In this document: positions 20,243 through 57,845 of the stretch, in pieces
How the letters are laid out: each line of letters starts with the position of its first letter
Numbering within the stretch: the stretch's first letter is position 1
DNA from: an uncultured cyanobacterium
GTDB taxonomy: Bacteria > Cyanobacteriota > Cyanobacteriia > Phormidesmidales > Phormidesmidaceae
Length of the DNA stretch: 64,000 nucleotides
Assembly: GCA_963793265.1 (NCBI GenBank)
Contig: CAWBZI010000006.1
Span: 640,001-704,000, forward strand
Direction: 5' to 3'
Made by a program: the position numbers and the translations under genes
Notes under the pieces: generated by a model
What the model saw: only the letters and a program-made list of their open reading frames with translations
Databases searched by the model: none
What the model was told of the DNA's origin: nothing

Positions 20243-21457
20243 GTGATAATTATGGAACAGCGAAGGGTCATCAATATCGTTACCGGACAGGGTGGCGCAG
20301 GTCACTACGCGACTTACTACGCCATTCGAGCACTGGCCGAGCAGCAGAATCTGCCTTGGAAATTTCAAGTGACCGATATGGATGAGATTATTACGAATCT
20401 CTCCGAGCGAAAACAGATTGAAAATGCATATGAGAGGTTTGGCTTTTCAGGACATGACCTGTACAACCTGATGGTGAAAGGTGGGTGGACTTGGCTATGG
20501 CCACTGAAGATGAGGCTCAATAAGCTGCTGGTGAAGATAAACCATGAGACTGGTGTAAAAATCTTTACGGAGTACTGGCGGCAGCAACGGCCAGATTTGG
20601 TAGTGTCGGTGATGCCGCTCTACAACAAAGGTCTGTGGCAAAGCCTGCAGAAAGCGCAGCCGAGCACGCCCTACATTACGGTAATGACCGACTTTGCCGA
20701 TAGTCCACCTGACTTTTGGATAGATACAGATATTCAAAACGTTTTGGTGTGTGGTACGAGGAAGGCTGCTAGGCAGGCGTGGCAAGTAGGCGTAGCAGAG
20801 AGTCGGATAAAGGCGACTTCTGGGCTTGTTGTTCATCCTAATTTTTGTGAGGCCAACGAGCGTGAGGAAGAGAAAAGTCGACGGCGATCGCGTCTCGGCT
20901 TAGAACCTAACGTACCTACAGGTATAGTCATGTTTGGCGGCAACGGCTCAGCCAAAATGGAAGAGATTGCTAGTCGTCTTGAACGATTCAAAGAGAATAT
21001 TCAGCTTATCTTTTTGTGTGGTAGAAATTTCGAACTTGCGGCGGTGCTACGACAATATAACGGCCTGCAAAATCGGTGCGTTGTTGAATTTACAGATCGG
21101 GTGCATAACTATCTATCTATGGCTGATTTCTTTATTGGTAAGCCTGGGAACGTCAGCGTTAGCGAGGCGATCGCAATGCACGTGCCCGTCATTACTGAGC
21201 GCAATCGATTCACGATGGTGCAGGAAAAAGACTGTGCTGATTGGGTAGAAGCGCAGGAATGCGGCATTGTTCTTTCTAGATTTAAGACGGTCGATAAGGC
21301 AGTCGAACAAATGCTAGATCAGCGCGTTTACAGCCGCTATCAGCAGGCTATACAAAAGCATAATAATCGTGCTGTCTATGAGGTCGTAGAGATTATGAAA
21401 CAGTCGCTACAGCCCGAATACGCTACGAAAACACCTATTTCGCAGGCTATTGCATAG
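20243..21457 (+). CDS. GT28 MGDG-synthase/UgtP-like glycosyltransferase (1 of 4)
   Basis: GQGGAGH, PDLVVSVMP, TVMTDF, FGGNG, CGRN, IGKPG..SVSEA, QE. Confidence 0.85.
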   Translation: MIIMEQRRVINIVTGQGGAGHYATYYAIRALAEQQNLPWKFQVTDMDEIITNLSERKQIENAYERFGFSGHDLYNLMVKGGWTWLWPLKMRLNKLLVKINHETGVKIFTEYWRQQRPDLVVSVMPLYNKGLWQSLQKAQPSTPYITVMTDFADSPPDFWIDTDIQNVLVCGTRKAARQAWQVGVAESRIKATSGLVVHPNFCEANEREEEKSRRRSRLGLEPNVPTGIVMFGGNGSAKMEEIASRLERFKENIQLIFLCGRNFELAAVLRQYNGLQNRCVVEFTDRVHNYLSMADFFIGKPGNVSVSEAIAMHVPVITERNRFTMVQEKDCADWVEAQECGIVLSRFKTVDKAVEQMLDQRVYSRYQQAIQKHNNRAVYEVVEIMKQSLQPEYATKTPISQAIA

Positions 21458-21498
21458 GCAACCTAGACCCTCTTGAGCATCTACTATGGCACTTTTAC

Positions 21499-23010
21499 AT
21501 GGCACTTCCTTTAGTACAAACGCGCGAAGCTGACGCCGCAGACATCACCCGCCAAATTACTCAGATGGTTGCGGCCAGCGGCATTTCAAGAGAAAAGGTG
21601 CCTGCACTTTTAGGTGGCGTACCTGTGCGAACAGCACCATATCCTAGCTGGCCCACGCTAGACGAGGCGGCTGTTAAGGCGGATATTGAGGCGGTGAGTG
21701 CGGTTTTGCGCTCGAGGCAGTGGGGCGGTGCACCTTATCCGGGGGTGCACACTCGAGCGTTTGCAGCGGCGTTCTTAGCGATGCAGGTTGGAAACAATCA
21801 GCCTGATAAAGAGACTTTTTTTGCGGTGCCGATGATGAATGGCACTTTGACGATGGAGGTAGCGCTGCGAGCGGCTGATATTGGCTGGGGTGATGAGGTG
21901 ATTGTGCCTGCCTACACGTTTCAGGCGACGGCGACAGCTCCGATTGCGATTGGCGCAGTTCCGGTGCTGGTTGATGTTGATCCTGATACGTATTGCATTA
22001 GTCCCATTGCTATTGAGGCTGCGATTACAGATAGAACAAAGGCGATTATGCCGGTGCATTTGGGCGCGCAGATGGCGGATATGGATGAGATTATGGCGAT
22101 CGCATCCCGTCATAATCTTGTTGTCATTGAAGACTGTGCTCATGCTCATGGGGCCGAGTGGAACGGGCGTGGGGCCGGGACGATAGGGCACTTTGGCTCG
22201 TTTAGCTTGCAGTCTTCTAAGCTGCTGACGACTGGGGAAGGGGGCGTTTTAATCGGTAGAGGTGAGGACACCTGGCGAAAGGTGGTGGGGTTGGTGGACT
22301 GTGGGCGATCGCCTACGTCTTCACAAGGTTCAACCCCACATAGTCCAATCTCACTAACCCAAGATCCCACCGGCTTGATGAGTTCACTCATCGGCCAGCT
22401 ACGCACGCAGGTGAATTCGCATAGTCTCGAAGGCGCTGTAGGCATAGGCAGCAACTATCGCATGACTGAACTACAGGCGGCGCTGGGCCGTACGGCCTTG
22501 CAAAGATTCCCACAACAGCAGCTACAGCGGGCAGCTATGGCCGATTATTTAGAGCAACAGTTTGAAGGGGTTGAAGGCGTACGACTGCTAAAGCGACAGA
22601 AAAATCATACTCGGCGGTCTGTTTATCGGTATATTTTTGCGATTGATCCTGAGCTGTTCGGCGTCGATCATCAGGTAGTAGCGCTGGCCCTGCATTTAGA
22701 AGGCATTGCCTGCTGGCAAGGGTATGCGGCTCTGCATTGTCATGAGAGTTTTCAGCCGTTGCGATCGCGTCTCCCGGTACCGAGCGTATACCCTCAAGCC
22801 TTTAACTTTGAGGCCATGAGCTTTCCTGAAGCTGAAAGCGCCAGCGAAGCGGAAGCCATCTGGTTAGAAGAGTCTGTTTTTAGAGCAGGAAAGCAGGGTA
22901 TAGACGACGTGGTAAGGGCGCTAAAGAAAATTCAAGCAAGCGCGCCGTTGCTAAAAGCGGCTAGGGTTTATTTCTTAGAAGCTGTTGCAACGCAGGGGGT
23001 ATCCAGATGA
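21499..23010 (+). CDS. DegT/DnrJ/EryC1/StrS PLP aminotransferase (RifK/StsC-like)
   Basis: VIEDCAHAHG, FSLQSSKLLTTGEGG (PLP Lys), NYRMTELQAA; N-terminal LLGGVPVR..PSWP. Confidence 0.9.
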   Translation: MALPLVQTREADAADITRQITQMVAASGISREKVPALLGGVPVRTAPYPSWPTLDEAAVKADIEAVSAVLRSRQWGGAPYPGVHTRAFAAAFLAMQVGNNQPDKETFFAVPMMNGTLTMEVALRAADIGWGDEVIVPAYTFQATATAPIAIGAVPVLVDVDPDTYCISPIAIEAAITDRTKAIMPVHLGAQMADMDEIMAIASRHNLVVIEDCAHAHGAEWNGRGAGTIGHFGSFSLQSSKLLTTGEGGVLIGRGEDTWRKVVGLVDCGRSPTSSQGSTPHSPISLTQDPTGLMSSLIGQLRTQVNSHSLEGAVGIGSNYRMTELQAALGRTALQRFPQQQLQRAAMADYLEQQFEGVEGVRLLKRQKNHTRRSVYRYIFAIDPELFGVDHQVVALALHLEGIACWQGYAALHCHESFQPLRSRLPVPSVYPQAFNFEAMSFPEAESASEAEAIWLEESVFRAGKQGIDDVVRALKKIQASAPLLKAARVYFLEAVATQGVSR

Positions 23011-25637
23011 AGACTAAACAGATCGCATCTCAAAGAGATACCCACAAAGAGAGCAGCTTACAGCCAATAAAAAAAACTATTCACGTGCTTGTACTTCGCG
23101 GTGGCGGCGGTCACTATGCAACCTATAGAGCACTTCAGGCCGTGATTGAACAGCAGCAGCTTCCCTGGAATTTGGAGCTGACATTTGCTGATGATATTGG
23201 TGGCAATGGTATAGATACATCAGAAGCTCGCCCTGGTATAGCAAGAGCGCTATCTCGACTATCAGGCTACGTTGCCGATATAGTCTATGACCTTATCTTG
23301 AAGAAAGGGTGGAACTGGATACATCTTTTTACCCTGCCTTTGCACAAGCAAATCGTTAAGCTCCGAGGCCCAGTCGATCGGCAAATGCTCAGCGAAAAGT
23401 GGCAAGTGCATCCACCGGATCTAATTCTCTCGGTGGTGCCTTTTCACAACCGCTGCCTGTGGGAAAGTTTATCAGAACAATCTATTCCCATCGTCACACT
23501 GCTTACCGATTTCGGAGACTCCCCACCGGCTTACTGGATAGAGCCTGACACCGACAACTATCTGATTTGCGGCACCGCAATCGCGTCGCAGCAGGCACTT
23601 GCGCAGGGCGTTCAACCTGAGCGAATTTTGCCGACATCGGGGCTGGTCATCGATCCCAGCTTTTATGAGCCGCCCAAGTCGGCGTCGTGGATTTGTCAGG
23701 AGAGAGAAAAGCTGGGACTAGAGGCAGATCGCCCGACGGCGCTGGTTCTTTTTGGTGCGAATGGGTCTTTGGCGATGATTGATATTGCTGAGCAGCTAGA
23801 GGCTTTGGGCGATCACCTCCAAATCATCTTCGTCTGCGGGCGCAATCTCGCCGTTGAGCAGACGCTGTGGAAGCGCGAAACTGCGCAGAAGAGAGTGGTG
23901 GTTGGCTTTACGCAGGAAATTGCACACTACATGGCGATCGCTGACTTCTTTATCGGCAAGCCCGGCAACGTCAGCATCAGTGAAGCGCTCAAAATGGGCC
24001 TGCCTGTTATCGTCAATCGCAACTGGCTCACCATGCCTCAAGAGCGCCATGTTGCTGGTTGGATAAAAGATCAGCAGGTCGGCCTTACGGTTCAAAACTT
24101 TAAGCAGACTCGCGCTGCCGTTGAGCAAATGTTACAGCCCGGCGCACTCGCTCGCTATCAAAGCAATGTGGAAAAGTTCGAGAATCAGGCAGTGTTTGAA
24201 GTCGTTGAGATTTTGCAGGCGCTTTTACAGCGTGAGCCCTTGCCGTATCAGCTTTCTGAGACAGGCATTCTAGAGCAACAGATTGATACAAACAAACCGC
24301 TACAAATTCTAAGCAGCGCGGTTTCGCTCTATCAATTTACGCCACGGGCCGTCTTTCATCCAGCCACCGAAGCCGATTTGGCGCAGGCAGTTCAGCTAGC
24401 CGCTAAAGAAGGTCTGAAGATTCGAGCGATTGGCGCGCTACATTCAGCCGTACCGATTCCGGCGACTGACGGCGTTTGTATTATGCTCGATCGCTACCAA
24501 AAGCTGTTGAAAGTCGAAGGCACTCAGGTTACTGTGCAGGCAGGCATTCAGATCTGTCAGCTCAATGAGGTGCTAGCAGAAAAAGGGCTTGCCTTACCGA
24601 TTCTCGGGACTATCGATCAACAGACGATTGCGGGCGCTATTTCGACGGGTACCCACGGTGGCTCGCTTCATCGGCCTAGCCTGAGTAGCTACGTTAGCGC
24701 CGTGAGTCTCATTAAAGCAGACGGCTCAATCGTGACAATCTCGCGAAATCAGCCAGCATTTAAAGCGGTCGGCATCTCTTTAGGTCTTTTAGGCATTCTC
24801 TCTACCGTCACAATCGACTGTGTGCCTGCTTTCTCTTTAAGGGCAAAGACTTATGCTTTTAGTTTTGAGCAGCTTATTAAAAACTTTGAGCGCATTCATC
24901 AAGACAACGACTTTGTTGATATCCGATACTCACCAATCACTAACACTGCCCATGCGGTGCTGATTAATCAGCCCGAGCAGCCCATTGCTAAAAATGGCGG
25001 ATGGGAGCCGGTTAAGCAAAGCAAGCTAACCTGGCGAGCCACTGAAACAGTCAACAAAATGGCGCAGCGGGTGTTTCAACAGCTACCCGTCAATGGCTTA
25101 CAGCGCTGGTGCTTAAATCGGTACGAACAGTCGGTTTATTCAGCGCCCTATGGTCGTAGCGATTTTGTACTCACGCACTTTGATGCGACTTCAGATGATT
25201 TGATTAGCAACAAAGCCTCAGTTGATCTTGACCCGGTGGCGGACATGGAACTAGCCGTGCCTTATGGGCGGGCGATCGCGGCCCTGCAAGCCATCAGAGA
25301 TCACTTTCACAAAACCCAACGCTATCCCACCATGCAAATTCACATTCGCTGTTCGGCAGGCGAAGATTTTTGGCTTAGCCCGAGTCAAAGTGAGCCCATT
25401 TGCTGGCTAGAGTTTTGGGAATATCCCTGTACAGGCGAATTCTTTGCAGAGATGGTGGCGCTGCTCAAACCCTTTGGACTTAGGGGTCACTGGGGTAAAC
25501 AGATTCCGATAGAGACTAATTACTTGCAGGCTCAATATCCGCGCTGGCAAGACTTTTGTCAGCTTGTCAAACAGTGGGATGCTGACGGGCGTTTTAGCAA
25601 CTCGACGCTGACTCATTATTTTAGAACAGAGGGTTGA
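23007..25637 (+). CDS. Fusion of GT28 glycosyltransferase (2 of 4) and aldonolactone-oxidase-type FAD oxidoreductase
   Basis: N-half GGGGH, IGKPG; C-half RAIGALHS, QTIAGAISTGTHG, SLGLLGI, HWGK. Confidence 0.85.
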   Translation: MKTKQIASQRDTHKESSLQPIKKTIHVLVLRGGGGHYATYRALQAVIEQQQLPWNLELTFADDIGGNGIDTSEARPGIARALSRLSGYVADIVYDLILKKGWNWIHLFTLPLHKQIVKLRGPVDRQMLSEKWQVHPPDLILSVVPFHNRCLWESLSEQSIPIVTLLTDFGDSPPAYWIEPDTDNYLICGTAIASQQALAQGVQPERILPTSGLVIDPSFYEPPKSASWICQEREKLGLEADRPTALVLFGANGSLAMIDIAEQLEALGDHLQIIFVCGRNLAVEQTLWKRETAQKRVVVGFTQEIAHYMAIADFFIGKPGNVSISEALKMGLPVIVNRNWLTMPQERHVAGWIKDQQVGLTVQNFKQTRAAVEQMLQPGALARYQSNVEKFENQAVFEVVEILQALLQREPLPYQLSETGILEQQIDTNKPLQILSSAVSLYQFTPRAVFHPATEADLAQAVQLAAKEGLKIRAIGALHSAVPIPATDGVCIMLDRYQKLLKVEGTQVTVQAGIQICQLNEVLAEKGLALPILGTIDQQTIAGAISTGTHGGSLHRPSLSSYVSAVSLIKADGSIVTISRNQPAFKAVGISLGLLGILSTVTIDCVPAFSLRAKTYAFSFEQLIKNFERIHQDNDFVDIRYSPITNTAHAVLINQPEQPIAKNGGWEPVKQSKLTWRATETVNKMAQRVFQQLPVNGLQRWCLNRYEQSVYSAPYGRSDFVLTHFDATSDDLISNKASVDLDPVADMELAVPYGRAIAALQAIRDHFHKTQRYPTMQIHIRCSAGEDFWLSPSQSEPICWLEFWEYPCTGEFFAEMVALLKPFGLRGHWGKQIPIETNYLQAQYPRWQDFCQLVKQWDADGRFSNSTLTHYFRTEG

Positions 25638-27200
25638 GTGGCCATTATGCAACATATTGAAAGCAAGTATGCGATCGCTCCACCACTGATGCCACCGCGC
25701 CGGTTGATCTTAAGCGCAATGTGCCTGGCTTTATTTATCACTAACTTTGACGGTACCGCTATGGACGTGGCGCTGCCGGTTGTGCAGAAAAGCTTGGGCG
25801 CGAATATGACTGGGCTTCAGTGGATTTTGAACGCCTATAACTTGCCGATTGCAAGCCTGTTGTTAGTGAGTGGAACGCTGGGCGATCGCTATGGTCGCAA
25901 GCGTATTTTTCTCTTTGGCCTCGGTTTATTCACCATCGCCTCTATTATCTGCGGCTGCGCGACGACGCTACCGGGCCTTATTGTCGGCAGAACCCTACAG
26001 GGCTTTGGTGCTGCCGCGCTTGTGCCTTTATCTCTAACCATCTTGAGTGCGACCTTTGTTGAAGCCGATGAAAAGACTAAGGCAATCGGCATTTGGTCTG
26101 CAATATCAGCCTTTGCACTCATCGCGGGCCCTGGGCTCGGCGGCATTCTCATCAGCACGCTTAACTGGCAAAGTATCTTCTGGCTCAACGTGCCTTTAGG
26201 ACTGTTGACCTGGGGTTTAGCAGCCTACGCGGTGCCCGCCGATCAGTCACAGGCTGATCGCAACAAACCTCAGCTAGACTGGCCGGGCCTAATATTCAGC
26301 ATTTCTATGCTCTCAACTTTTGCCTTAGCGCTCAGTGCGGGCGGTGAAGGGCAGTGGCTCTCAGGTTCTGTAGTGAAACTCGCAGCGGCTTCTGTGCTTA
26401 GCCTGGTGGGCTTTGTCGTGGTAGAGTCTCTCGCACGACACCCCATGCTGCCGCTGCCGCTGTTGAAAAATGCGGTGTTCTCAGTGGCCACGGTGGCGCA
26501 GGGGCTGGTGTTCTTTGCCTCGGGCAGCCTGGTGTTTCTCTTTAGCCTGTTTCTACAGCAGGTGCAGGGCTACTCTCCACTGCAAACAGGGCTGCGCTTT
26601 TTGCCGATGAACGCAGCTATTATTACAGCCGCTTTTCTCTCTGGCTGGCTGGCAAATCGCTTTGGCTGGCGGGTGCCCGTTATCGGTGGCTTTATGCTGG
26701 CGAGCGGCGCTATTTTCACACTCACCTCTATCGGGGTCGAAACACCCTACAGCAAACTGTTGTTTGGGCTAGTACTCTCTGGATTTGGCGGCGGGCTGAC
26801 CATCGCCCCGCTCACCGCACAGGCGATGGCCGCAGTGCCTACGGGACTCTCCGGTATCGCCTCTGCTGTGCTGAATGTGGGGATTCAGCTCGGGGGAATT
26901 TTGGGAATTTCATTGCAGGGAACGCTGTTGGCGCGGCGGCTAGAGGGTGCGATCGCGCTACAGCTTACCGAGTGGAATGTGCCCTTGGCGCTACAGCCCG
27001 AGATTATTCAGGGCGCTTTAGAGAATCAGGTGCGGGTGCCAGTGGCAAGTGCGCTGTCTGCTGCTGAGGTGCAAATTGCTATTCAACAGTCTTTTGTGGT
27101 TGGCTTGCAGGCAGCTTTGTGGGTGGCAGCGCTGGCTTTGTTTAGCGGGGCTGTGCTGGTTGGGATGCTCAGGCGATCGCAATTCGAGAAAATAAAATAG
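25638..27200 (+). CDS. DHA2 (14-TMS) MFS exporter (1 of 3)
   Basis: VALP, LGDRYGRK, GRTLQGFG, WQSIFWLNVPLG. Confidence 0.9.
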   Translation: MAIMQHIESKYAIAPPLMPPRRLILSAMCLALFITNFDGTAMDVALPVVQKSLGANMTGLQWILNAYNLPIASLLLVSGTLGDRYGRKRIFLFGLGLFTIASIICGCATTLPGLIVGRTLQGFGAAALVPLSLTILSATFVEADEKTKAIGIWSAISAFALIAGPGLGGILISTLNWQSIFWLNVPLGLLTWGLAAYAVPADQSQADRNKPQLDWPGLIFSISMLSTFALALSAGGEGQWLSGSVVKLAAASVLSLVGFVVVESLARHPMLPLPLLKNAVFSVATVAQGLVFFASGSLVFLFSLFLQQVQGYSPLQTGLRFLPMNAAIITAAFLSGWLANRFGWRVPVIGGFMLASGAIFTLTSIGVETPYSKLLFGLVLSGFGGGLTIAPLTAQAMAAVPTGLSGIASAVLNVGIQLGGILGISLQGTLLARRLEGAIALQLTEWNVPLALQPEIIQGALENQVRVPVASALSAAEVQIAIQQSFVVGLQAALWVAALALFSGAVLVGMLRRSQFEKIK

Positions 27201-27212: not shown

Positions 27213-28742
27213 ATGAAACAAATTCGAGACGGTAAGGTTACAGTCCTCTGCGCAATGTGCCTGGCGCTGTTTATGACTAACTTCAACGCCACCGCAGCAG
27301 ATGTGGCCCTGCCTCAAATGCAACAGAACTTGGGCGCTGACATGCTTGGGGTGCAGTGGATTCTAAACGCATACCTTTTACCCGTTGCCAGCCTGCTATT
27401 GGTGACTGGCAAACTAGGCGATAGGTACGGTCGCAAGCGCATATTTTTAGCCGGTATTCTACTATTTAGCATCGCCACCGTAGTCTGTGGGCTCGCGCCT
27501 AACTTAGCCGTGCTGATTGTTGGACGCGGTTTGCAAGGCATCGGTGCAGCGGCGGTAATTCCTTTATCGCTCACGATTGTGACGGCGACCTTTAGTGACC
27601 ATCAGGCGCGGGCAAAAGCAATTGGGATATGGTCGGCAGTTTCAGCGATCGCACTTGTCGCGGGCCCCGGCTTAGGCGGCTTTTTGGTAGACGGCTTAGG
27701 CTGGCGCAGCATCTTTTTTATTACGCTTCCTTTAGGCTTAGTCACGTTTGCGATGACGGCTCGGGCCTTTAAAGAACAATTAAGAGAAAAAGCTGTGGTT
27801 AGCTGGGTTGGGTTGGGGTTGAGTGTGGTTGCGATCACCTCCCTTGTATACGTTCTCACCCAGGGCAGCATAGCAGCCTGGCAATCCACCCGAACCCTCG
27901 GCCTACTCACTATTACCGGCCTCAGCTTCACCGCCTTCTGGCAGGTCAACGCCCGCAGCAACACGCCCGTCATTCCACCAACTCTGCTTAGAAACAGAAA
28001 ATTCCTCACGCTCTGCTTCGTACAAACCTTGGTTTTCTTCACCTCTGGCGGATTGTTCTTCATTCTGAGCTTGTTCTTACAGCAGGTTCAAGGCTATTCC
28101 GCTGCCGCTACCGGCCTGTGCTTCATCCCGATGAACATCGCAATCGTTTCAGCCTCCTTCGCCTCCGGGTGGATTGCGGCCAAGCTAGGCTGGCGCTTCC
28201 CCATTCTCAGCGGCCTTACAATTGCGAGCATTGCACTATTCTCACTCACTCGCATCAGCATCAATACGCCCTACCTCACCACGCTATCGACCCTCATATT
28301 CTCAGGATTCGGCGGTGGCCTGACCATCGCCCCCCTCGCTGCTGCCGCGATGAATTCCGTACGTCCGGTAGAAGAAGGCATCGCCTCAGCCGTTTCGAGC
28401 ATCAGCATTCAATTTGGCGGCATTCTAGGCATTGGCTTACAGGGTGCGCTGTTCTCAGGCAGGCTCACCGCTGCGCTAAAAGACACAATGCTCGACTGGA
28501 ATTTATCGTCCGATCTCCAAGAGAAAATTTTAGCGGACGGCATCCAAAACCTGTCCAATTCCCCTGTTAATTTACCGCCCACCCTCTCTTCAGCAGCATT
28601 AGAACAAGCGGTCAAACTAGCGTTCGTCTCAGGGCTACAGTCCGTAGTACTCATAGCCGCGCTCTCACTGGTTTTCGGCGTACTACTCATATTTACCTTA
28701 GTTCCTTCAATCGTTCGGTCTTCTGTCCATGAACAAGTTTAA
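27213..28742 (+). CDS. DHA2 MFS exporter (2 of 3)
   Basis: LGDRYGRK, GRGLQGIG, WRSIFF; paralogue of the preceding gene. Confidence 0.9.
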   Translation: MKQIRDGKVTVLCAMCLALFMTNFNATAADVALPQMQQNLGADMLGVQWILNAYLLPVASLLLVTGKLGDRYGRKRIFLAGILLFSIATVVCGLAPNLAVLIVGRGLQGIGAAAVIPLSLTIVTATFSDHQARAKAIGIWSAVSAIALVAGPGLGGFLVDGLGWRSIFFITLPLGLVTFAMTARAFKEQLREKAVVSWVGLGLSVVAITSLVYVLTQGSIAAWQSTRTLGLLTITGLSFTAFWQVNARSNTPVIPPTLLRNRKFLTLCFVQTLVFFTSGGLFFILSLFLQQVQGYSAAATGLCFIPMNIAIVSASFASGWIAAKLGWRFPILSGLTIASIALFSLTRISINTPYLTTLSTLIFSGFGGGLTIAPLAAAAMNSVRPVEEGIASAVSSISIQFGGILGIGLQGALFSGRLTAALKDTMLDWNLSSDLQEKILADGIQNLSNSPVNLPPTLSSAALEQAVKLAFVSGLQSVVLIAALSLVFGVLLIFTLVPSIVRSSVHEQV

Positions 28743-46770: not shown

Positions 46771-47669
46771 AATGAAGTTAGAGGAGTCGGTTGTTTTACG
46801 GGAGCAGGCAGCGGAACTTCTTTGCAGGCTGTTGATTGGTTGGCCTTCTGACGATTGCTTTGAGTGATACCAAGCCAGTCGTTAGAAAGGTCGGCTAGCA
46901 CAGGAAAAATCTGTTCTAGCGCCAGCAGCAGTCGAGTCACAGCTTCTATCCCCCAGTTTTGATTGACAATTACCTCACGGCGGCGATGCAATACCGCATT
47001 GAGAACAGCTTTTGCCACGGTTTGAGAGTGCGATCGCCCCGCCAAAAAAGGCGCTTCTACCCCGGTATCAGCCAGCATCCCCTGGTCAACTACATACCCT
47101 GGACAAATGGCAGACACGCCAATTTGCGAACCAGCAAGCTCCTGGCGCAAAGAGTGATTCCACATCAACAGACCAGCCTTACTTGCCGCATAGGCGCTGT
47201 CAAAGGGATGGCCTTTCTTACTTGCCAAAGAGGCCATATTCACCACATGCCCCTCACCGTTCATCTGCGGCAACAGCAGCCGAGTCAGCGCCATCGCCGC
47301 CAGCAAATTCACCCGAACCACGCGCTCTATCTCGTCTAATCCATAGTCTTGAAAGGCTCGGTAGATTTCAATACCAGCATTGTTGATCAAGATATCAACC
47401 CGGCCCGACGCCATGTTCTTAGCCCGCTGATCAATCTGCCGGGAAAGCTCAGGTATGCGAGCAGTCTCGTTGAGATCGAAAGCAATACCGACCGCCTGCA
47501 CACCATATAGCTCAACGCTTGCTTGCCAGCTATCTAGCTGAGATTGAGATCTGGCAATGCCGATAATGTGGACACCCTGCTGCGCAAAAGCTCTCGAAAT
47601 CTCTAAGCCAATACCGCGCGAGGCTCCGGTCAATACGGCTGTTTTTCCTGACAGTGATAGTCTGTTCAC
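46767..47669 (-). CDS. Short-chain dehydrogenase/reductase
   Basis: TGASRGIG, NNAG, YAASK. Confidence 0.92.
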   Translation of the reverse strand: MNRLSLSGKTAVLTGASRGIGLEISRAFAQQGVHIIGIARSQSQLDSWQASVELYGVQAVGIAFDLNETARIPELSRQIDQRAKNMASGRVDILINNAGIEIYRAFQDYGLDEIERVVRVNLLAAMALTRLLLPQMNGEGHVVNMASLASKKGHPFDSAYAASKAGLLMWNHSLRQELAGSQIGVSAICPGYVVDQGMLADTGVEAPFLAGRSHSQTVAKAVLNAVLHRRREVIVNQNWGIEAVTRLLLALEQIFPVLADLSNDWLGITQSNRQKANQSTACKEVPLPAPVKQPTPLTSL

Positions 47670-49582: not shown

Positions 49583-49927
49583 CTAAATCTCAAAGAGGTC
49601 GCTATCGTCAGTAGCGAGTTCTTCAACAATGTGAGCCGAAAGAGAGTCGATGGTAGGACAGTTCCAAATGACGAGCGGAGAAATTTCAAGACCGAAGCGC
49701 TGCTTGCCCTGGGTGGCGATCGCCATTGCCTGCACGGAATCTAAACCATAGCTGTGAAAGGGCGATCGCGTATCGATATCATCCGCCTCTATGCCGAGCT
49801 GTCCGGCCACTTGTTCAGCGAGCCAGTCTTGAATATCAGCTAAGTCCATTGGCAAACTTTCACTGAGTCCAGGCACGGTAGGAGAAGTATTTTTAACGCT
49901 TTGCTGAGCTGTTGATGGAGTAGTCAT
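49583..49927 (-). CDS. Stand-alone acyl carrier protein
   Basis: FHSYGLDSVQA, PTIDSL; acidic tail DDSDLFEI resembles a C-terminal docking peptide. ATG 49927. Confidence 0.88.
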   Translation of the reverse strand: MTTPSTAQQSVKNTSPTVPGLSESLPMDLADIQDWLAEQVAGQLGIEADDIDTRSPFHSYGLDSVQAMAIATQGKQRFGLEISPLVIWNCPTIDSLSAHIVEELATDDSDLFEI

Positions 49928-49943
49928 GGTCGTAAAAACACCG

Positions 49944-52472
49944 TTAGTTGTTATTGATTGCCCGAGAACGCTCTGCATAATAAAGACTCTTCATCGCGTT
50001 GTTTTTGACAGGCCGCTGAGTAGGCACTTGGCGAGAAGCAAACCAGTAAGACGAGCGCTCAAATGGATAGGTCGGCAGCGGCATTTTTTGTCGGCAATAG
50101 CCCGCATCAAAAACCGCCCAGTCAACCTCAGCGCCACTCACAAACAGCTCACCCAAATGAGAGAGAAGCTGCGGCCAAATCTCTATCCCATCCTGCATAG
50201 CTAGCAGCTTTACAGCCCCCAACTCTGCTTTACTCAGGCATCCAAACACAGATCCCTCTACGCCCATACACAGCGCTATGTCATAGCCCGAAAGTCCGGT
50301 TAACGGCAGCTTTTTATAGGTGTCTGGATGATCGCTCGCAGAGACAAACTGCGATACTGCTTGCTGCAACAGTGGGCTATAGGCATTAACGCGCACCTCA
50401 GTAAAAGCGTGGGGAGAAGAAGGGCTAATAGGGGCAGAAATAGCAGCGGTAGCCGCAGAGAGTAGCGGTAGGTGAGGCAGTTTGTAGGTGAGTGACGCAG
50501 CGCTCCAAAGCGGTGTTGTTAGCGGTAAAGACAGCAGGGGCAGCACTTCTCTAATATCTAACAGACCGGAAACGCAGGCTGCGACATATTCGCCTAAGCC
50601 TCTGCCCATCACAGCTCTAGGCACAATGCCCCAGGTTTGCCAGAGGGTGCTAAGCGCGTAGCTCGCGGCAAATCCACTCACCCGTGCCACCGCTGGCTCA
50701 GTTGCAAAAGAAGCCGTTAGGCGGAGCTGCCTCCCAACCAGGCGCGAGCAGAGATCGAAGGATTCGCGGAACACAGGCTGCGTTTTGTACAGGTGGTTGC
50801 CCAGGGCCAAGGTGCCTGCTGTCGCTGGTTCAGGAAAGTAAAACACTATCTTAGGGCGCTTTCTCCTCTGCGCTTTGCCGGTAATAAACTGACTGGCCAG
50901 CAAAGTCTCTTCGCCTTCTGCAAACTGGGCAAGCTGCTGTTGTAAGTGCGATCGCGAATGACTCACCAAACAAAGCCGCTCGGCAAAGTGAGTGCGCCCG
51001 GTATTTGCGGCAAAGCAGATATCGGCCAAGGAAGTCTCGGGCTGTGAGGTAGCAGCCATGCTCCCCTGTCCGCTAAGTAAAAAGTCACTGTAGCGCTGTG
51101 CTAAAGCTCGCAAAGCCGTTTTACTTTTGGCTGTCATCGCAAAAACATGATGCGACCTATCGCCATAAAGCGCGCTGTCGGCAAGTCTCACACCAACCGG
51201 CGTTTCCTCAATCACCAAATGAGCATTCGTGCCGCCAAATCCAAACGTACTCACGCCCGCTATACGAGGTCGCGAGCCGCGCTGCCAGGGTTTACCCGCC
51301 GCCAAAATCTCAAACAATCCGTCATTCAAATCAACATAGTCATTCGCCCGCTCAAAATTTAGCTGCGGCGGAATCTCGCCGTGCTGCAACGCCAGCACTA
51401 CCTTAATCAGGCTGGCAATGCCCGAAGCCGCCTCTAAGTGACCGATACTCGGCTTCAGCGAGCCAATCGTACAGGCTTCTTTACGCCCCGCTGCTAGCAC
51501 CTTTCTCAACGCCTTAAATTCGATGGCATCCCCCAAGGGCGTTCCTACCGCGTGTGCTTCTACATAGTCAACCTCTGCGGGAGTAACAGAACTATTTGCC
51601 AAGCTCTGTTGAATTAAAGCCTGCTGAGCGCGACCGTTAGGAGCAACCATGCTGTTGCTCAATCCATCTTGATTAACAGCCGAACCGCGAATAACAGCCA
51701 AAATATTATCACCATCAGCGATCGCATCATTCAACCGCTTTAGCACCACCACCCCGCAGCCCTCACCTCTCACATAGCCATCGGCATTAGCATCAAAGGG
51801 TCGGCATTCGCCTTTAGCCGAGAGCAGCCCAGTCTGCGAAGAGGAGATCATCGAGTCGGGTGAGAGAATGAGATTAACGCCGCCTGCAATGCCCAGGTTT
51901 GTCTCTTGTGATCGCAAACTCTGCATCGCTAAATGCACAGCTACCAGCGAAGAAGAACAGGCAGCATCTACCGCCATACTCGGCCCTCTTAAGTCCAACA
52001 GATACGAAAGCCGGTTGGCTGTAATCGACATTGTGGTGCCCGTGCCGCTATGCGGGCCAATGCAGTCAAAGTCTTTGTACAGCAGGCGGTGGTAGTCAAT
52101 CGTGCACAGCCCCGTAAACACGCCCGTAGCGCTACCGCCCAAGCCCATCGGAGCAACGCCCGCATGTTCAAGTGCCTCCCATGCCACCTCTAAAAACAAG
52201 CGCTGTTGCGGATCGATATGGGCAGCTTCAGCATCACTGATACCGAAAAAAGACGCGTCAAATTGATCAACATCCTTTAAGAAGCCGCCCCGACAGCTAC
52301 TCATTTTCCCGGCGATGCGAGGGTCAGGATCGTAAAAGTGTGCACTCTCCCAGCGCTCAGTTGGAACCGTGCTAATGGCGCGATCGCCGCTTTGCAACAA
52401 ACGCCAAAAGGCTTCGGGACTATTCGCCTGTGGGAACCGGCAGCCAATGCCGATAATTGCAATAGGTTCCAT
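49944..52472 (-). CDS. Type I PKS: ketosynthase plus degenerate AT
   Basis: DPQQRL, DAACSSS, EAHAVGT, IGHLE. The AT motif GHSxG reads GRGLG; ends with LPTYPF. Confidence 0.9.
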   Translation of the reverse strand: MEPIAIIGIGCRFPQANSPEAFWRLLQSGDRAISTVPTERWESAHFYDPDPRIAGKMSSCRGGFLKDVDQFDASFFGISDAEAAHIDPQQRLFLEVAWEALEHAGVAPMGLGGSATGVFTGLCTIDYHRLLYKDFDCIGPHSGTGTTMSITANRLSYLLDLRGPSMAVDAACSSSLVAVHLAMQSLRSQETNLGIAGGVNLILSPDSMISSSQTGLLSAKGECRPFDANADGYVRGEGCGVVVLKRLNDAIADGDNILAVIRGSAVNQDGLSNSMVAPNGRAQQALIQQSLANSSVTPAEVDYVEAHAVGTPLGDAIEFKALRKVLAAGRKEACTIGSLKPSIGHLEAASGIASLIKVVLALQHGEIPPQLNFERANDYVDLNDGLFEILAAGKPWQRGSRPRIAGVSTFGFGGTNAHLVIEETPVGVRLADSALYGDRSHHVFAMTAKSKTALRALAQRYSDFLLSGQGSMAATSQPETSLADICFAANTGRTHFAERLCLVSHSRSHLQQQLAQFAEGEETLLASQFITGKAQRRKRPKIVFYFPEPATAGTLALGNHLYKTQPVFRESFDLCSRLVGRQLRLTASFATEPAVARVSGFAASYALSTLWQTWGIVPRAVMGRGLGEYVAACVSGLLDIREVLPLLSLPLTTPLWSAASLTYKLPHLPLLSAATAAISAPISPSSPHAFTEVRVNAYSPLLQQAVSQFVSASDHPDTYKKLPLTGLSGYDIALCMGVEGSVFGCLSKAELGAVKLLAMQDGIEIWPQLLSHLGELFVSGAEVDWAVFDAGYCRQKMPLPTYPFERSSYWFASRQVPTQRPVKNNAMKSLYYAERSRAINNN

Positions 52473-53939: not shown

Positions 53940-53944
53940 AGACT

Positions 53945-54208
53945 CTACGATTCTCCTAAATAACAAACCAAGCTTTCCACTGTCGGATAGTCATACAGCA
54001 AAGTAGGATCGACTTCTTTACCTAGCCAGTCTTCAAGATCTCCGGTCAAGCCGATGGCCGCCGAAGAGTCTAAGCCATAGCTATCAAAGGGCACTTCGGT
54101 ATCAATCTCATCAGAGCTTATTTCTAAAAGTCCTGATAAATAGGCAACAATCCACGCTCTAATCTCTTCATCTGTAACGTTAGAAACCTGTCTTTCTTTA
54201 ACTTCCAT
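53945..54208 (-). CDS. Acyl carrier protein
   Basis: FDSYGLDSSAA, LLYDYPT. Confidence 0.92.
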   Translation of the reverse strand: MEVKERQVSNVTDEEIRAWIVAYLSGLLEISSDEIDTEVPFDSYGLDSSAAIGLTGDLEDWLGKEVDPTLLYDYPTVESLVCYLGES

Positions 54209-54549: not shown

Positions 54550-56436
54550 TTATGATTTATTTTTCCTCTCTATTGTCTTTAAAATTGAATCTACCTCGCT
54601 TTGAATTTTGACAAATTCACTTTTGTGCGTCGGGCTCTCACTCCAGTCTTTTACAATTGCCAGCTCTCCCGATAAAAACAGATCGCGGCAGCGGTAGCGC
54701 TGAAGTTTTCCACTAGAGGTTTTGGGAATGCTCCCAGGCTTTACCAGCAAAGTTGCATACACTTGCAGGTCGTGAGCTGCCGCGATCGCCCGACGAACAC
54801 AGCCACTCACCGCCACTACATCTAGCTTACGCACGTGCGATCGCGCTACCTCCGAGACAATCACCAGCCGCTCTTTGCCTTTATGCTCTATCGAAAAAGC
54901 TGCGATCGCCCCCACCTTCAAAGCCGCATGAGCTGTCTCCAACGTTCGCTCAATATCCTGAGGGTAATAGTTTTTCCCTCGAATAATCATCACATCTTTA
55001 ATGCGCCCAGTCACAAACAGCTCTTGACCTTCTAAAAAGCCCAGATCTCCCGTCCGCAAAAATGGCCCCGCAAAAGTATCTGCCGTATAGGCTTGAAAAG
55101 TCTGCGAAGTCTCCTCGGGCTTTCGCCAATAGCCTTTGGCCACGCTTTCGCCCTGCACCCAGATCTCACCCACTTCACCAGACGAACAACACGTCAGCGT
55201 CTCAGGATGAACAATCTTCACGCGCTGATCCTGCAGGCTTTGGCCGCAGCCAACAACCGTCACAAACCCGAAATCATTCTTCTTATTCTTGTCAGCTTCA
55301 CCGACCGCTTCCACTTGATGTTGACCAAGCTTTTGGGCATCAACGTGTTTTATTGTTGGCTTCGCGGCTATCTCACCGCCCGATACGATTAGGGTTGTCT
55401 CAGCCATGCCATAGCAAGGATAGAAAGCCTCACTGCTAAAGCCGTAGGGCTCAAAAACTTCACCAAACCGGGCCAGGGTGTCAGCGCGAATAGGCTCTGC
55501 CCCGGTAAAGGCAACCTGCCAACTGCTCAGATCAAGACCTTTTAGCGGTGCCGGATTCTCTTCACGTGAGAGCAAAATTTGGGCTTTGCGAGCACATAAA
55601 TCGTAGGCAAAATCTGGCCCGCCGCTGGTTGTTCCTCTATAGTCAGAAACGGCTCGCAGCCAGCGTAAAGGCTTTTGCAAAAAATCAACCGGAGACATCA
55701 GCGTTACTTCAAAGCCGCCGTATAGTGGCTGAAGAATACCCCCAATCAAACCCATATCGTGATACGGCGGTAGCCAGATAACGCCTTTGCTATCTGCACT
55801 ATGACCAAAGCAACGGTGAATTGCTGCTAGGTTATGCAACAGATTTTCTTGAGTGACCATGACACCCTTAGGCGTACCTGTCGATCCCGAAGTGTACTGT
55901 AAGAACGCAAGCGAACTAGGCGTAGCGTTGCGATCCCAAAAGTGGGCGTCTGCTGGCACATCTTCTGTAATCACATCTACCGAAAGCCACGGAATATCTG
56001 CTAAAGGCGATGATTCGTCAAACCATTTTCCAATCTTGTCGGCTAGATCAGCTGTGGTGAGGACAGCCGTTGCCGCTGAATCATCCACAATAGAAAGCAG
56101 CCGCAGCAGCTTTTGGTTTTTACGGGGAGGATAAGCCGGTACCGCCGTAACCCCTGCGTACAGGCATCCCAAGAAGGCTGTCACAAAATCCAGACCGGGA
56201 GAGAACAGCAGCAGCGCCCGCCCGCCTGTGATGTTAAGCGATCGCAAATGAGCAGCTACCGCCCGAGCCCGAGCCCGCAGCGTTTGATAGTCCATCTGAC
56301 CATCAGGCACCTCGCCTCTTCGCAAGTACCGATAGGCAAGGTCGTGCGGCTGATGCTGCGCGCGATAGTCTAACAGTTCAGTGAAGCTCAAACCTGCCGG
56401 AACAATCTCTGATGAGATCTGTAAAGTTGTTGTCAC
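54550..56436 (-). CDS. Fatty acyl-AMP ligase (FAAL)
   Basis: FLQYTSGSTGTPKGV, WLPPYHDMGLIG, YPCYGMAE, FAAL-type insertion after SGG, IPKTSSGKLQR. Confidence 0.92.
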   Translation of the reverse strand: MTTTLQISSEIVPAGLSFTELLDYRAQHQPHDLAYRYLRRGEVPDGQMDYQTLRARARAVAAHLRSLNITGGRALLLFSPGLDFVTAFLGCLYAGVTAVPAYPPRKNQKLLRLLSIVDDSAATAVLTTADLADKIGKWFDESSPLADIPWLSVDVITEDVPADAHFWDRNATPSSLAFLQYTSGSTGTPKGVMVTQENLLHNLAAIHRCFGHSADSKGVIWLPPYHDMGLIGGILQPLYGGFEVTLMSPVDFLQKPLRWLRAVSDYRGTTSGGPDFAYDLCARKAQILLSREENPAPLKGLDLSSWQVAFTGAEPIRADTLARFGEVFEPYGFSSEAFYPCYGMAETTLIVSGGEIAAKPTIKHVDAQKLGQHQVEAVGEADKNKKNDFGFVTVVGCGQSLQDQRVKIVHPETLTCCSSGEVGEIWVQGESVAKGYWRKPEETSQTFQAYTADTFAGPFLRTGDLGFLEGQELFVTGRIKDVMIIRGKNYYPQDIERTLETAHAALKVGAIAAFSIEHKGKERLVIVSEVARSHVRKLDVVAVSGCVRRAIAAAHDLQVYATLLVKPGSIPKTSSGKLQRYRCRDLFLSGELAIVKDWSESPTHKSEFVKIQSEVDSILKTIERKNKS

Positions 56437-56506: not shown

Positions 56507-56576
56507 CCCCTGCCCCTCTCTGGCCTCTAAACCTTGACCATAAACATAGTAAGGTTAACTCAGAGAGGGGCAGGGG
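56507..56576 (-). terminator. 16-bp perfect inverted repeat (terminator, attenuator or processing stem)
   Basis: CCCCTGCCCCTCTCTG (56507-56522) pairs with CAGAGAGGGGCAGGGG (56561-56576); 38-nt loop; lies between the RTX gene and FAAL. Confidence 0.55.
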
Positions 56577-56594
56577 GCAACACCCTACATCGCC

Positions 56595-57845
56595 CTATAC
56601 GAAGTGAGCACTATACTCTAGGCTAATGTGCGCCGTATTTTGTAAGAAGGCAATGCGATCGCCCTGAAATAAAATCTGCGTGCTACCATCACTTTCTTGC
56701 ACAGCATAATCACTCGCTGAGCCCGAGAGCACAAGCTTATCTTTGCCCACCATAAAGTCAGCAATTCCGGCAAAATCATGAACACCATCACCGACGTAAT
56801 AAGCGCCATTAGCATCGCCCAAAACAAACTTGTCGTAGCCATCGCCGCTGATAATAAAGTCTTGCTCACCGCGACCCGCGTTTTTAGCGTCCGTGCCATT
56901 CAAGATATCATCACCCAGCAGTCCGGTAAGCGTATCGTCGCCCGCGCCGCCTTCTAGAAAGTCACCGCCGACGCCGCCAATCATCGTGTCGTCGCCATGA
57001 CCACCAAAGATGCGATCGCTGCCACCACCACCTTCTAGCGTATCATCGCCACCCGCGCCGTATATCTTGTCGTCGCCCGCGCCACCTTCTATTATGTTGT
57101 CTTCATCATCACCAACAATATCGTCATTAAAGGCCGTGCCCACCACATTCTCGATACTGCTCAGGTGCTCACGACCATAAATACCATCGGCAAACTCTTC
57201 TTCTAAGTCAACGCGCACCGCACCTTTGCTATCCAAGAAAGAAACCGTGTCGTTGCCAAAGCCGCCGTCGAGAAAGTCTAGGCCATCGCCGCCCTGCAAA
57301 AAGTCGTTACCGTTTCCACCGAACAATTCATCGTCACCGTTGCCGCCAAATAGATCGTCATTGCCATGGTCGCCAAAGAGAGTATCGTCGCCATTGTCAC
57401 CAAAGAGAAAGTCGTTACCATCTTCTCCTTCTAGCAGATCGTTGCCATCGCCACCGTGAATGTTGTCGATGCCGTCGCCGCCAAATAGCTCGTCGTTACC
57501 GAGCCCACCTTTAAGCAAATCATTGCCATCATCGCCCCATAACTCATCGTGACCGCTACCCCCAATTAAGGTATCGTCACCGTTGCCACCTGTGAGTTCA
57601 TCATCACCGTTGCCACCGTCTACAACGTCGTTACCATCTTCTCCTTCTACAAAGTCATCGCCATCGCCGCCATATAGCTTGTCGTAGCCGTCGCCACCAA
57701 AGATTTCATCGTGACCGCCTAAGCCAAAAAGGATGTCGTTGCCACCAAATCCATCAATCCAGTCGCTTTCGCCGGTACCAAATAGCTCATTAAAACCGTC
57801 ATCGCCCTCAACCCGATTGAAGGTCCAATACGAAAAGAATCCCAT
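56595..57845 (-). CDS. RTX (hemolysin-type) calcium-binding protein
   Basis: Many GGxGxDxLx nonamers; C-terminal FVLGDAN..Y..D...I.DF..LSGSASDY. Confidence 0.9.
   Translation of the reverse strand: MGFFSYWTFNRVEGDDGFNELFGTGESDWIDGFGGNDILFGLGGHDEIFGGDGYDKLYGGDGDDFVEGEDGNDVVDGGNGDDELTGGNGDDTLIGGSGHDELWGDDGNDLLKGGLGNDELFGGDGIDNIHGGDGNDLLEGEDGNDFLFGDNGDDTLFGDHGNDDLFGGNGDDELFGGNGNDFLQGGDGLDFLDGGFGNDTVSFLDSKGAVRVDLEEEFADGIYGREHLSSIENVVGTAFNDDIVGDDEDNIIEGGAGDDKIYGAGGDDTLEGGGGSDRIFGGHGDDTMIGGVGGDFLEGGAGDDTLTGLLGDDILNGTDAKNAGRGEQDFIISGDGYDKFVLGDANGAYYVGDGVHDFAGIADFMVGKDKLVLSGSASDYAVQESDGSTQILFQGDRIAFLQNTAHISLEYSAHFV

Follow-up and report, generated by a model that had tools for sequence, protein, structure and literature searches.

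Introduction

The nostochlorosides are chlorinated glycolipids in which 6-O-methylgulose is carried on a C21 chain with a 1,2-diol, a hydroxyl at C6 and chlorine at C12. The cluster that makes them, ngl (pks3) of Nostoc punctiforme ATCC 29133, came out of a search for homologues of CylC and CylK occurring without CylI (Glasser et al., Nat Chem 2024; PMC10849952). Here we describe a gene cluster at positions 20243 to 57845 of a 64,000-nucleotide stretch of DNA from an uncultured cyanobacterium of the Phormidesmidaceae (contig CAWBZI010000006.1, positions 640,001 to 704,000; the whole stretch is referred to as the window). This cluster also pairs a CylC-like halogenase with a CylK-like enzyme, and from its sequence we consider it likely to be a shortened, differently glycosylated relative of ngl that makes chlorinated alkane-diol glycolipids.

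The ngl genes listed in the supplement of that paper encode a thioesterase, a fatty acyl-AMP ligase (FAAL), an acyl carrier protein (ACP), a hypothetical protein (the halogenase), three type I polyketide synthases (PKSs), a TubC_N protein (NglG) and a short-chain dehydrogenase/reductase (SDR), and further an FAD-linked oxidase, an SDR, an epimerase, a GMC oxidoreductase, a group-1 glycosyltransferase, a methyltransferase, an SBBP repeat protein (NglO) and a membrane fusion protein (PMC10849952 supplement). The ketosynthase (KS) of NglF has the residues C-Q-H and is proposed to pass the chain on (PMC10849952 Supplementary Note 3), while NglG, with a docking and a putative aldolase domain, is proposed to end the assembly line and form the odd-carbon diol (PMC10849952). 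NglO has a C-terminal RTX domain and oligomerises nostochloroside A through ether bonds, a hydroxyl displacing chloride, with O6 being favoured (PMC10849952).

In CylK itself, Arg105 and Tyr473 bind the halide and the acid at position 440 activates the nucleophile (PMC8916777, PMC10849952). BrtB has Glu at this base position (PMC8916777); it works on exogenous fatty acids, at the envelope or close to it (Kahn et al. 2026, PMC13712857). Only 19% of the CylK homologues with the halide-binding residues were reported to adjoin a CylI homologue (Braffman et al. 2022, PMC8916777). The CylC-family halogenases are marked by the motifs QExxH and HxxDExxH, with seven of nine conserved residues (PMC12101540).

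A preliminary description of this DNA knew of no characterised cluster with such content. One exists in ngl, which by its published account has CylC and CylK without resorcinol enzymes and makes chlorinated glycolipids (PMC10849952); the pairing is therefore already known in print. The class of product that had been predicted, a chlorinated or cross-linked glycosylated lipid in which the alkyl chloride is displaced by a nucleophile other than a resorcinol, is well supported by the homology to ngl. What is new here, as judged from the sequence, is that the ngl-type core comes without elongation modules, that the sugar genes are different and more numerous, and that the CylK homologue belongs to a separate clade.

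Correspondence with the ngl pathway

The reference for comparison was an ngl-type locus found by genome search in a Nostoc genome (G066; genomes are cited by our own numbers), and its proteins were compared by BLASTP with those of the window. This locus fits the published ngl cluster: it spans 36,029 bp from the thioesterase to the last gene, its NglF-type KS has Q344 in place of the first catalytic His, and its NglO-type protein carries R84, E428 and Y460. Homologues in the window were found for twelve of the eighteen ngl-type proteins (E 1e-5), NglD and NglE being matched only via their KS/linker part. The preliminary description had named a near-complete match to a characterised cluster as an outcome that would count against it; the match to ngl is partial and confined to these twelve proteins.

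The closest agreement lies in the lipid-forming genes. The FAAL is 55% identical to NglA, ACP1 65% to NglB and the halogenase 44% to NglC, with the same order in both loci. The KS is 50% identical to the KS of NglF and ACP2 40% to its ACP, while the NglG-like protein is 54% identical to NglG over the full length and SDR2 49% to NglH. Lower identities were observed for the ALO oxidase domain (28% to NglI), SDR1 (27% to NglJ), the GMC oxidoreductase (23-24% to NglL) and the CylK-like enzyme (34% to NglO). Twelve of the twenty-four window genes have no counterpart in the reference locus (E 1e-8), namely GT28a, GT28b, GT28c, Glf, DegT, the three major facilitator superfamily (MFS) transporters, the resistance-nodulation-division (RND) exporter, its membrane fusion protein (MFP), the FG-GAP protein and a 330-amino-acid (aa) membrane protein (TM330). 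The RTX-repeat protein at the cluster edge matched the reference locus through its repeats only.

Halogenase, carrier proteins and ketosynthase

The CylC-like protein contains QEHDH at residue 152 (QExxH) and HFLDEAFH at residue 311 (HxxDExxH). Its Pfam AurF score is below threshold (21.5 bits, cut-off 29.6), a relaxed Pfam search (E up to 10) brought nothing further, and PDB and NCBIfam sequence searches gave no match. The identification as CylC is thus borne out by the family motifs and by the 44% identity to the ngl-type halogenase, though not by Pfam. Its loading partners, ACP1 and the FAAL, are encoded directly upstream. As listed, the halogenase frame begins at a TTG and shares 22 nt with the end of ACP1; an ATG further downstream is probably the actual start. 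Elsewhere in the same genome, outside the window (G000:C1:1006566-1007696), another, distant CylC-like gene was found; its 395-aa frame has 30-38% identity and contains both motifs.

The cluster has a single KS gene (842 aa), and Pfam found no ketoreductase (KR), dehydratase (DH) or enoylreductase (ER) domain in cis. The catalytic residues C172, H307 and H345 are intact, and the HGTGT motif reads HAVGT in the window and in three close relatives (four of four sequences). The acyltransferase (AT) remnant had been called dead, and this is confirmed by GRGLG in place of the active-site motif GHSxG, without the catalytic Ser and His, where related working PKS ATs read GHSVG. The terminal-module AT is non-working in all three cluster types compared, as it is absent in the NglF type, reads GYGVG in an uncharacterised Glf/GT28 cluster of a record titled Nostoc sp. 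NIES-4103 (G041) and GRGLG in the window. The GLDS serine motif is kept in both ACPs, and TGxxxGxG and YxxxK are kept in both SDRs.

The putative chain-release protein

An AlphaFold model of the NglG-like protein, built from 58 sequences, has a mean pLDDT of 91.4. Its residues 322-619 align with rhamnulose-1-phosphate aldolase (Z 14.1, root mean square deviation (rmsd) 3.3 A, 189 residues; Foldseek E 8e-6), which confirms the class II aldolase fold in the C-terminal domain of what had been described as a docking/aldolase-like protein. Three histidines of this domain (H514, H516 and H574) show a conservation of at least 90% in the 58 NglG-like sequences, and their HxH...H pattern is presumably the class II aldolase metal site. 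Decarboxylases and epimerases appear in the same list of fold matches, as do non-haem iron oxygenases such as NovR, TqaM and pyruvic oxime dioxygenase, so the aldolase-fold domain may catalyse any of several types of reaction. The middle domain, modelled alone (pLDDT 85.6), is Rossmann-like, and its best match, CoaB (Z 9.3, rmsd 4.7 A, 150 residues), is near background.

The protein has no NCBIfam match. Its family comprises 352 representatives at E <=1e-3, many of them sharing the docking domain only, and 106 at E <=1e-10. Three NglG-like genes were observed at separate places in the G041 genome.

CylK-like enzyme

A PDB sequence search matched the CylK-like protein to the solved CylK structure 7RON, in which a Ca-binding N-terminal domain precedes a beta-propeller, with an E-value of 2.1e-87, in four stretches over query residues 18-651. 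When the protein is aligned with eight relatives, its R30, E415 and Y449 occupy the positions of R105, D440 and Y473 in CylK and of R84, E428 and Y460 in the NglO type, and they are kept in all nine sequences. Both the structure match and the retention of the halide-binding and base residues support the earlier assignment of this protein as CylK-like.

We built a quick maximum-likelihood tree of 46 CylK-like proteins with SH-aLRT support, unrooted and with midpoint placement for drawing only, in which CylK and BrtB references were not included. A branch with a support of 100 parts 32 rows, among them the window and the Glf-associated Nostoc sequences, from 14 rows that include the NglO type. 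On this sequence tree the window enzyme falls in a clade without a characterised member among the 46 rows compared. The clade was found in marine filamentous cyanobacteria and in many Nostoc genomes, in every case close to genes for Glf and GT28. Among 127 genomes of one Nostoc genus, a CylK-like match (E <=1e-40) is present in 23, most of the matches being 50-57% identical to the window protein; at five places in four of these genomes, G066 among them, the identity is 41-43%.

Some relatives have two CylK-like genes within one locus (L031, L032 and L037). A same-genus CylK-like gene of 660 aa and 51% identity, without the RTX tail, was found at G013:C11:4476958-4478844; it was rejected as part of an orthologous cluster, as no other cluster gene was found in the 80 kb around it (about 40 kb per side).

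Gene content and extent of the cluster

The open reading frame (ORF) listing of the cluster gives six ORFs on the + strand (20243-29859) and seventeen of at least 100 aa on the - strand (29861-57845), and the 87-aa ACP at 53945-54208 (-) raises the total to 24 genes (Table 1). The two arms are convergent, with a single base between the end of the + arm at 29859 and that of the RND ORF at 29861, in agreement with the preliminary description. Its boundaries are also reasonable, since housekeeping genes lie on both flanks: a Zn peptidase, HEPN/nucleotidyltransferase pairs, a photolyase and cytochrome oxidase on the left side, and SbtA/SbtB on the other.

Table 1. Genes of the cluster in the window, with the evidence for each assignment.
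Gene product	Position	Strand	Evidence and remarks
GT28a, monogalactosyldiacylglycerol (MGDG)-synthase/MurG-type lipid glycosyltransferase	20243..21457	+	Pfam MGDG_synth and Glyco_tran_28_C; first cassette gene
DegT/DnrJ/EryC1-family pyridoxal-phosphate (PLP) sugar aminotransferase	21499..23010	+	Pfam E 1.1e-78
Fusion of GT28 and FAD-linked ALO/sugar-lactone-oxidase-type oxidase	23007..25637	+	Pfam GT28 128-336, FAD_binding_4 446-579, ALO 601-869
MFS transporter 1	25638..27200	+	Pfam MFS_1 E 7e-52
MFS transporter 2	27213..28742	+	Pfam MFS_1 E 7e-53
FG-GAP repeat protein	28729..29859	+	Pfam FG-GAP_3 E 1.3e-32; last cassette gene
RND (AcrB-type) exporter with C-terminal response-regulator receiver	29861..33538	-	Pfam ACR_tran E 1e-228, Response_reg 1109-1218
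HlyD-type MFP	33541..34935	-	Pfam HlyD_D23/HlyD_3
CylK-family enzyme with C-terminal RTX domain, NglO-like architecture	34984..37659	-	PDB 7RON match; SBBP propeller (Pfam); RTX repeat 755-782
TM330, 330-aa multi-pass membrane protein, possibly dolichol-kinase/CTP-transferase-like	38089..39081	-	Protein-language-model lead only
MFS transporter 3	38976..40592	-	Pfam MFS_1 E 1e-53
GT28b glycosyltransferase	40565..41806	-	Pfam
UDP-galactopyranose mutase (Glf)	41907..43046	-	Pfam GLF E 3.9e-71
GMC flavin oxidoreductase	43071..44708	-	Pfam GMC_oxred_N/C
SDR1	44747..45589	-	Pfam adh_short E 3.6e-54; TGxxxGxG and YxxxK
GT28c glycosyltransferase	45595..46770	-	Pfam; adjoins the SDR/NglG-like pair in all relatives
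SDR2, NglH counterpart (HetN-type reductase)	46767..47669	-	Pfam adh_short E 1.2e-47; both SDR motifs; always beside the NglG-like gene
NglG-like protein, 624 aa: TubC_N 1-56, Rossmann-like middle, class II aldolase fold 322-619	47666..49540	-	Pfam TubC_N E 2.6e-17
ACP2, stand-alone carrier of the terminal module	49583..49978	-	Pfam PP-binding E 1.7e-17; GLDS serine at residue 78
KS (842 aa) with dead AT remnant, counterpart of the terminal NglF module	49944..52472	-	Pfam KS N/C, weak AT match
CylC-family dimetal-carboxylate halogenase, 468 aa	52560..53966	-	Family motifs; 44% to NglC type
ACP1, carrier of the fatty acyl chain on which the halogenase acts	53945..54208	-	87-aa ORF; GLDS motif at residue 45
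FAAL	54550..56436	-	Pfam AMP-binding E 7.8e-63
416-aa protein of RTX calcium-binding repeats	56595..57845	-	Pfam HemolysinCabind, 11 stretches

Most of the genes named in the preliminary description were confirmed by Pfam (four GT28, DegT, Glf, GMC, two SDRs, KS, ACPs, FAAL and the transporters). Exporters are present as it had stated, although their number is five transport proteins, three MFS and the RND/MFP pair, and not four. It had also reported the lack of type III PKS, nonribosomal peptide synthetase and thioesterase, and no such domain was found by a Pfam scan of the 23 cluster ORFs. The type III PKS model PF00195 was matched nowhere in the genome, whose completeness is 98.97%. DarA/DarB-type domains were likewise not found in the 23 cluster ORFs scanned by Pfam; no genome-wide DarA/B search was made. 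A resorcinol-type cluster of the cyl/brt kind was ruled out, type III PKS being absent from both cluster and genome.

Neither the Rfam nor the tRNA scan gave a hit in the window. For positions 49944-53966, the sequencing runs listed were eight DNA runs from two studies, with none of RNA. At 17448-19059 (-), immediately to the left of the cluster, two tandem pairs of HEPN and nucleotidyltransferase genes resemble a duplicated toxin-antitoxin-type module. The remaining flanks are ordinary and include two tandem flavodiiron-type proteins with ODP metallo-beta-lactamase and flavin reductase domains at 4562-8194 (+), the SbtA/SbtB bicarbonate transporter pair at 58469-59897 (+), and a NACHT protein adjoining a TPR protein at 60758-63263 (-).

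Glycosylation and export genes

The GT28 enzymes were found to resemble lipid glycosyltransferases of the MGDG and diglucosyl-diacylglycerol synthase type (Pfam, NCBIfam), and GT28a is 55-56% identical to GT28b-type proteins. For the DegT protein, sugar transaminase models of NCBIfam match below their cut-off. GT28 and the ALO oxidase are contained in one 876-aa frame in the window, whereas they occur as separate adjacent stretches in G045, G020, G174 and G175 (two ORFs in G045); the single frame is either a true fusion or the result of a lost stop codon. No nucleoside diphosphate (NDP)-sugar 4,6-dehydratase was found in the cluster, and from this we infer that the GMC and ALO-type oxidases might make keto sugars on the glycolipid. 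The GT28-ALO fusion in the window, and the adjacency of GT28 and ALO to DegT in every copy of the cassette, fit this idea.

The 330-aa membrane protein had been called lipid-kinase-like, and this stands as a lead only: a protein-language-model search gives dolichol-kinase-like clusters at 0.93, while sequence searches against Pfam (including E up to 10), NCBIfam and PDB gave no match. The FG-GAP protein has no match in NCBIfam. A fusion of a transporter with a receiver domain is unusual, and the whole 1225-aa architecture of the RND protein, receiver domain (1109-1218) included, is kept in G010, G020 and G045, with a full-length identity of 66-67%.

Conservation in related genomes

A close CylK-like gene was found in ten of the 46 genomes of our genus sample, which includes the window's own genome. 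The most complete counterpart is in G045: of the 24 genes, 23 are matched there in the same order and orientation, including the convergent second arm; this locus differs in having one MFS for two and in encoding GT28 and ALO as separate genes. G010 has a single arm of FAAL-ACP-CylC-KS/AT-ACP-NglG-like-SDR-GT28-SDR-GMC-Glf-ALO-GT28-MFS-TM330-CylK-MFP-RND, and the main arm of G020 is smaller, without GMC, SDR1, GT28b, MFS3 and TM330. Across these three genomes the CylC-like protein is 73-76% identical to that of the window, the MFP 46-47% and GT28c 71-76% (57% in G041). The identity of GT28b is 68-74% in G010 and G045 and 57% in G041, that of GMC is 82-85% in G010 and G045, and Glf reaches 80-93% in related clusters. 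The 416-aa RTX-repeat protein recurs with 66% identity in G020 and G045, where it lies at the corresponding edge of the cluster.

The + arm forms a six-gene cassette (GT28a-DegT-GT28-ALO-MFS-FG-GAP) that recurs in several relatives. GT28a orthologues of 57-59% identity head the cassette in G045, G020, G174 and G175, and in the same four genomes MFS transporter 2 is the sole cassette MFS (58-60% identity). DegT orthologues of 56-64% were found in these and in G176 and G178, and the FG-GAP protein is 73-79% identical in cassette copies. In G020 the intact cassette lies about 14 kb past the other end of the main arm. The FG-GAP gene is present in seven of the 46 genomes, six of them among the ten with a CylK-like gene and one among the 36 without (G186, a partial 118-aa match). 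As the genomes are kin, this association of cassette and CylK-like gene is no more than suggestive. Co-occurrence of homologues of both arms elsewhere had been set as a test beforehand, and it was seen in other genomes, G045, G020, G174 and G175 among them.

A pattern scan of species-representative genomes gave 41 loci, none of them of ngl type. With at most 10 kb covered per side, 16 of these loci have Glf and nine have an NglG-like gene, and a TM330 homologue lies within 10 kb of the CylK-like gene in nine. MFS3 is kept beside the CylK-like gene in Nostoc and marine relatives, and the order NglG-like-SDR-GT28-Glf-GT28-MFS-CylK recurs in several Nostoc records.

Proposed pathway

Every step of the following route is drawn from homology and from the published work on ngl. 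The FAAL would load a free fatty acid onto ACP1, where the CylC-type diiron halogenase would chlorinate an unactivated mid-chain carbon of the bound chain. The KS with its dead AT would then move the chain to ACP2, probably without elongation. The NglG-like protein may dock via TubC_N and release the chain with its aldolase-fold metal domain, after which SDR2 would carry out a reduction; by analogy with nostochloroside A, the released lipid would be one carbon longer and end in a 1,2-diol. Hexoses would be added by the GT28 enzymes, at least one of them probably galactofuranose provided via Glf. The GMC and ALO-type oxidases might form keto sugars, which SDR1 could reduce (epimerisation) or DegT transaminate to an amino sugar. 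The MFS and RND/MFP exporters would take the lipid to the cell envelope, where the RTX-tailed CylK homologue may displace chloride with an oxygen, possibly a nitrogen, nucleophile and so yield ether-linked oligomers or esters. The location described for BrtB, in or close to the envelope (PMC13712857), agrees with the exporters and with the RTX tail. NglD, which installs the hydroxyl proposed as the nucleophile for NglO, is absent from the window, so the nucleophile would have to differ and might be a hydroxyl of the diol or of a sugar, an amine, or a free fatty acid.

A more far-reaching proposal, which we regard as speculative and on balance rather doubtful, is that the Glf/GT28-associated CylK clade catalyses an undescribed substitution, with a sugar hydroxyl or a DegT-made amino group as nucleophile, to give envelope glycolipid polymers linked from sugar to tail by ether or amine bonds, and that KS(dead AT)-ACP-NglG-SDR is a general one-carbon-adding release unit for fatty acyl or PKS chains, here used without PKS elongation.

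The window holds the simplest machinery for a nostochloroside-type lipid seen here, in which the loading cassette leads straight into the KS-ACP-NglG-SDR release unit. With no elongating modules between loading and release, it would be a convenient system for NglG-type release and odd-carbon 1,2-diol formation. The product would enlarge the small set of chlorinated glycolipids known from cyanobacteria, and galactofuranose and an amino sugar may be among its sugars. The cluster is a good natural-product target, though no surprise to specialists.

Alternative explanations

Several observations weigh against reading the cluster as a shortened relative of ngl. Six of the eighteen ngl-type proteins have no homologue in the window (the thioesterase, epimerase NglK, glycosyltransferase NglM, methyltransferase NglN, NglP and NglQ), and the elongating modules NglD (KS-KR-AT-ACP) and NglE (KS-AT-DH-ER-KR-ACP) are absent. 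The CylK-like enzyme, at only 34% identity, is split from NglO in the tree, on the 32-row as opposed to the 14-row side. The cassette lies on another contig than the main cluster in three genomes (G174/G185, C1 versus C5; G175/G182, C6 versus C36; G183, C127 versus C34). The chain-release chemistry of NglG is itself a published hypothesis only. Finally, the window KS keeps Cys-His-His where NglF has C-Q-H, so that one elongation with trans-loaded malonate would be possible. That the KS truly condenses, a malonyl-loaded ACP2 adding two carbons and an SDR reducing the beta-keto group to an internal hydroxyl that could serve as nucleophile, is in our view unlikely: Cys172, His307 and His345 are all retained, in contrast to C-Q-H in NglF and in the terminal KS of G041, and two SDRs are encoded, but the catalytic Ser and His are missing from the cis AT (GRGLG), HGTGT is changed to HAVGT in four of four sequences, and the module occupies the place of the non-elongating NglF.

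A rival reading is that of the preliminary description, a halogenation-driven glycolipid pathway of a new kind, without a characterised cluster of similar content. Half of the window genes (12 of 24) have no ngl-type homologue at E 1e-8, the CylK-like clade has no characterised member among the 46 rows, and in the open literature searched no publication was found on CylK together with galactofuranose, nor on the product of Glf/GT28-type clusters. However, the lipid core and the resorcinol-less CylC/CylK pairing match ngl gene for gene, G041 unites both cluster types in one locus, and resorcinol-less CylC/CylK clusters were, by the account in PMC8916777, already the majority in 2022. This explanation is therefore largely refuted by the ngl homology, and we consider it highly improbable. 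A different doubt concerns the + arm, which could be an independent operon for another envelope glycoconjugate that is a neighbour by chance. Its placement on other contigs in three genomes and about 14 kb off on the other flank in G020 would agree with this, as would G010, G019 and G022, which have the main cluster and in which DegT and FG-GAP queries found no cassette. Against it stand the same convergent adjacency in G045, the 55-56% identity of GT28a to GT28b-type proteins, and the presence of the FG-GAP gene in six of ten genomes with a CylK-like gene as opposed to one partial match in 36 without, in genomes that are kin and not independent. Moreover, an ALO-type oxidase is located inside the main arm of G010 and an ALO match beside GT28b in further loci, which argues that the ALO chemistry belongs to the pathway; an independent operon appears improbable to us. 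The last step leaves somewhat more room: the CylK-like enzyme could be BrtB-like and esterify free fatty acids onto the alkyl chloride at the envelope, giving no ether oligomers. The base residue is Glu (E415), as in BrtB and NglO, the NglD hydroxyl is missing, and BrtB is described as using exogenous fatty acids at or near the envelope (PMC13712857). On the other hand, sugar and diol hydroxyls, and possibly an amino sugar, would be available as nucleophiles, and the C-terminal RTX architecture is that reported for NglO. We hold this variant to be possible yet the less likely one; as it concerns the last step only, it is compatible with the remainder of the proposed pathway.

Comparison with known systems

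The cyl pathway shares with the window the chlorination of a fatty acyl-ACP by FAAL, ACP and CylC, followed by CylK-type displacement of chloride, and the equivalents of R105 and Y473 are kept. It differs in that the window has no CylI type III PKS in cluster or genome, has Glu in place of Asp440 and carries a C-terminal RTX domain; the expected product is a glycolipid, whereas that of cyl is a paracyclophane. Bartolosides are dialkylresorcinol glycosides made with DarA/B-type enzymes. The brt pathway, with the halogenase BrtJ and the CylK homologue BrtB (Reis et al. 2020, PMC7081238), resembles the proposed one in presenting a chlorinated glycolipid as electrophile to a CylK homologue that uses an oxygen nucleophile, but DarA/B-type enzymes and type III PKS were not found in the window cluster by Pfam of its ORFs.

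With ngl, the window has in common the FAAL-ACP-CylC loading cassette and a terminal KS-ACP that has no working AT and is followed by an NglG-type protein and a HetN-type SDR. A GMC oxidase, a further SDR and an ALO-type oxidase that is FAD-linked are likewise shared. Both also have an RTX-tailed CylK homologue with the R/E/Y residues, no resorcinol-forming enzyme, and a membrane fusion protein, although the window MFP has no BLASTP counterpart in G066. In contrast to ngl, the window lacks NglD and NglE and hence the KR-installed mid-chain hydroxyl proposed as the NglO nucleophile, and its KS combines C-H-H with a dead AT where NglF has C-Q-H and no AT. The genes for the gulose-type sugar (NglK epimerase, NglM group-1 glycosyltransferase and NglN methyltransferase) and the thioesterase have no homologue in the window (E 1e-5), which instead has four GT28, Glf, DegT, three MFS, the RND-receiver fusion, the FG-GAP protein and the 330-aa membrane protein.

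The Glf/GT28-type Nostoc clusters are related to the window through CylK homologues of one clade (48-54% identity), Glf (about 81%) and GT28 (about 57%), and the order NglG-like-SDR-GT28c-Glf-GT28b-MFS-CylK-like is common to the window and G041. The G041 cluster differs in having three PKS genes, the last with a C-Q-H KS and a dead AT (GYGVG), and a shorter CylK-like protein (731 aa); RND/MFP, GMC, SDR1, TM330 and the DegT cassette are lacking in the stretch examined. It bridges the two types, as it joins an ngl-like lipid part (69% to NglA, NglC and NglG) to a GT28c-Glf-GT28b-MFS-CylK part like that of the window.

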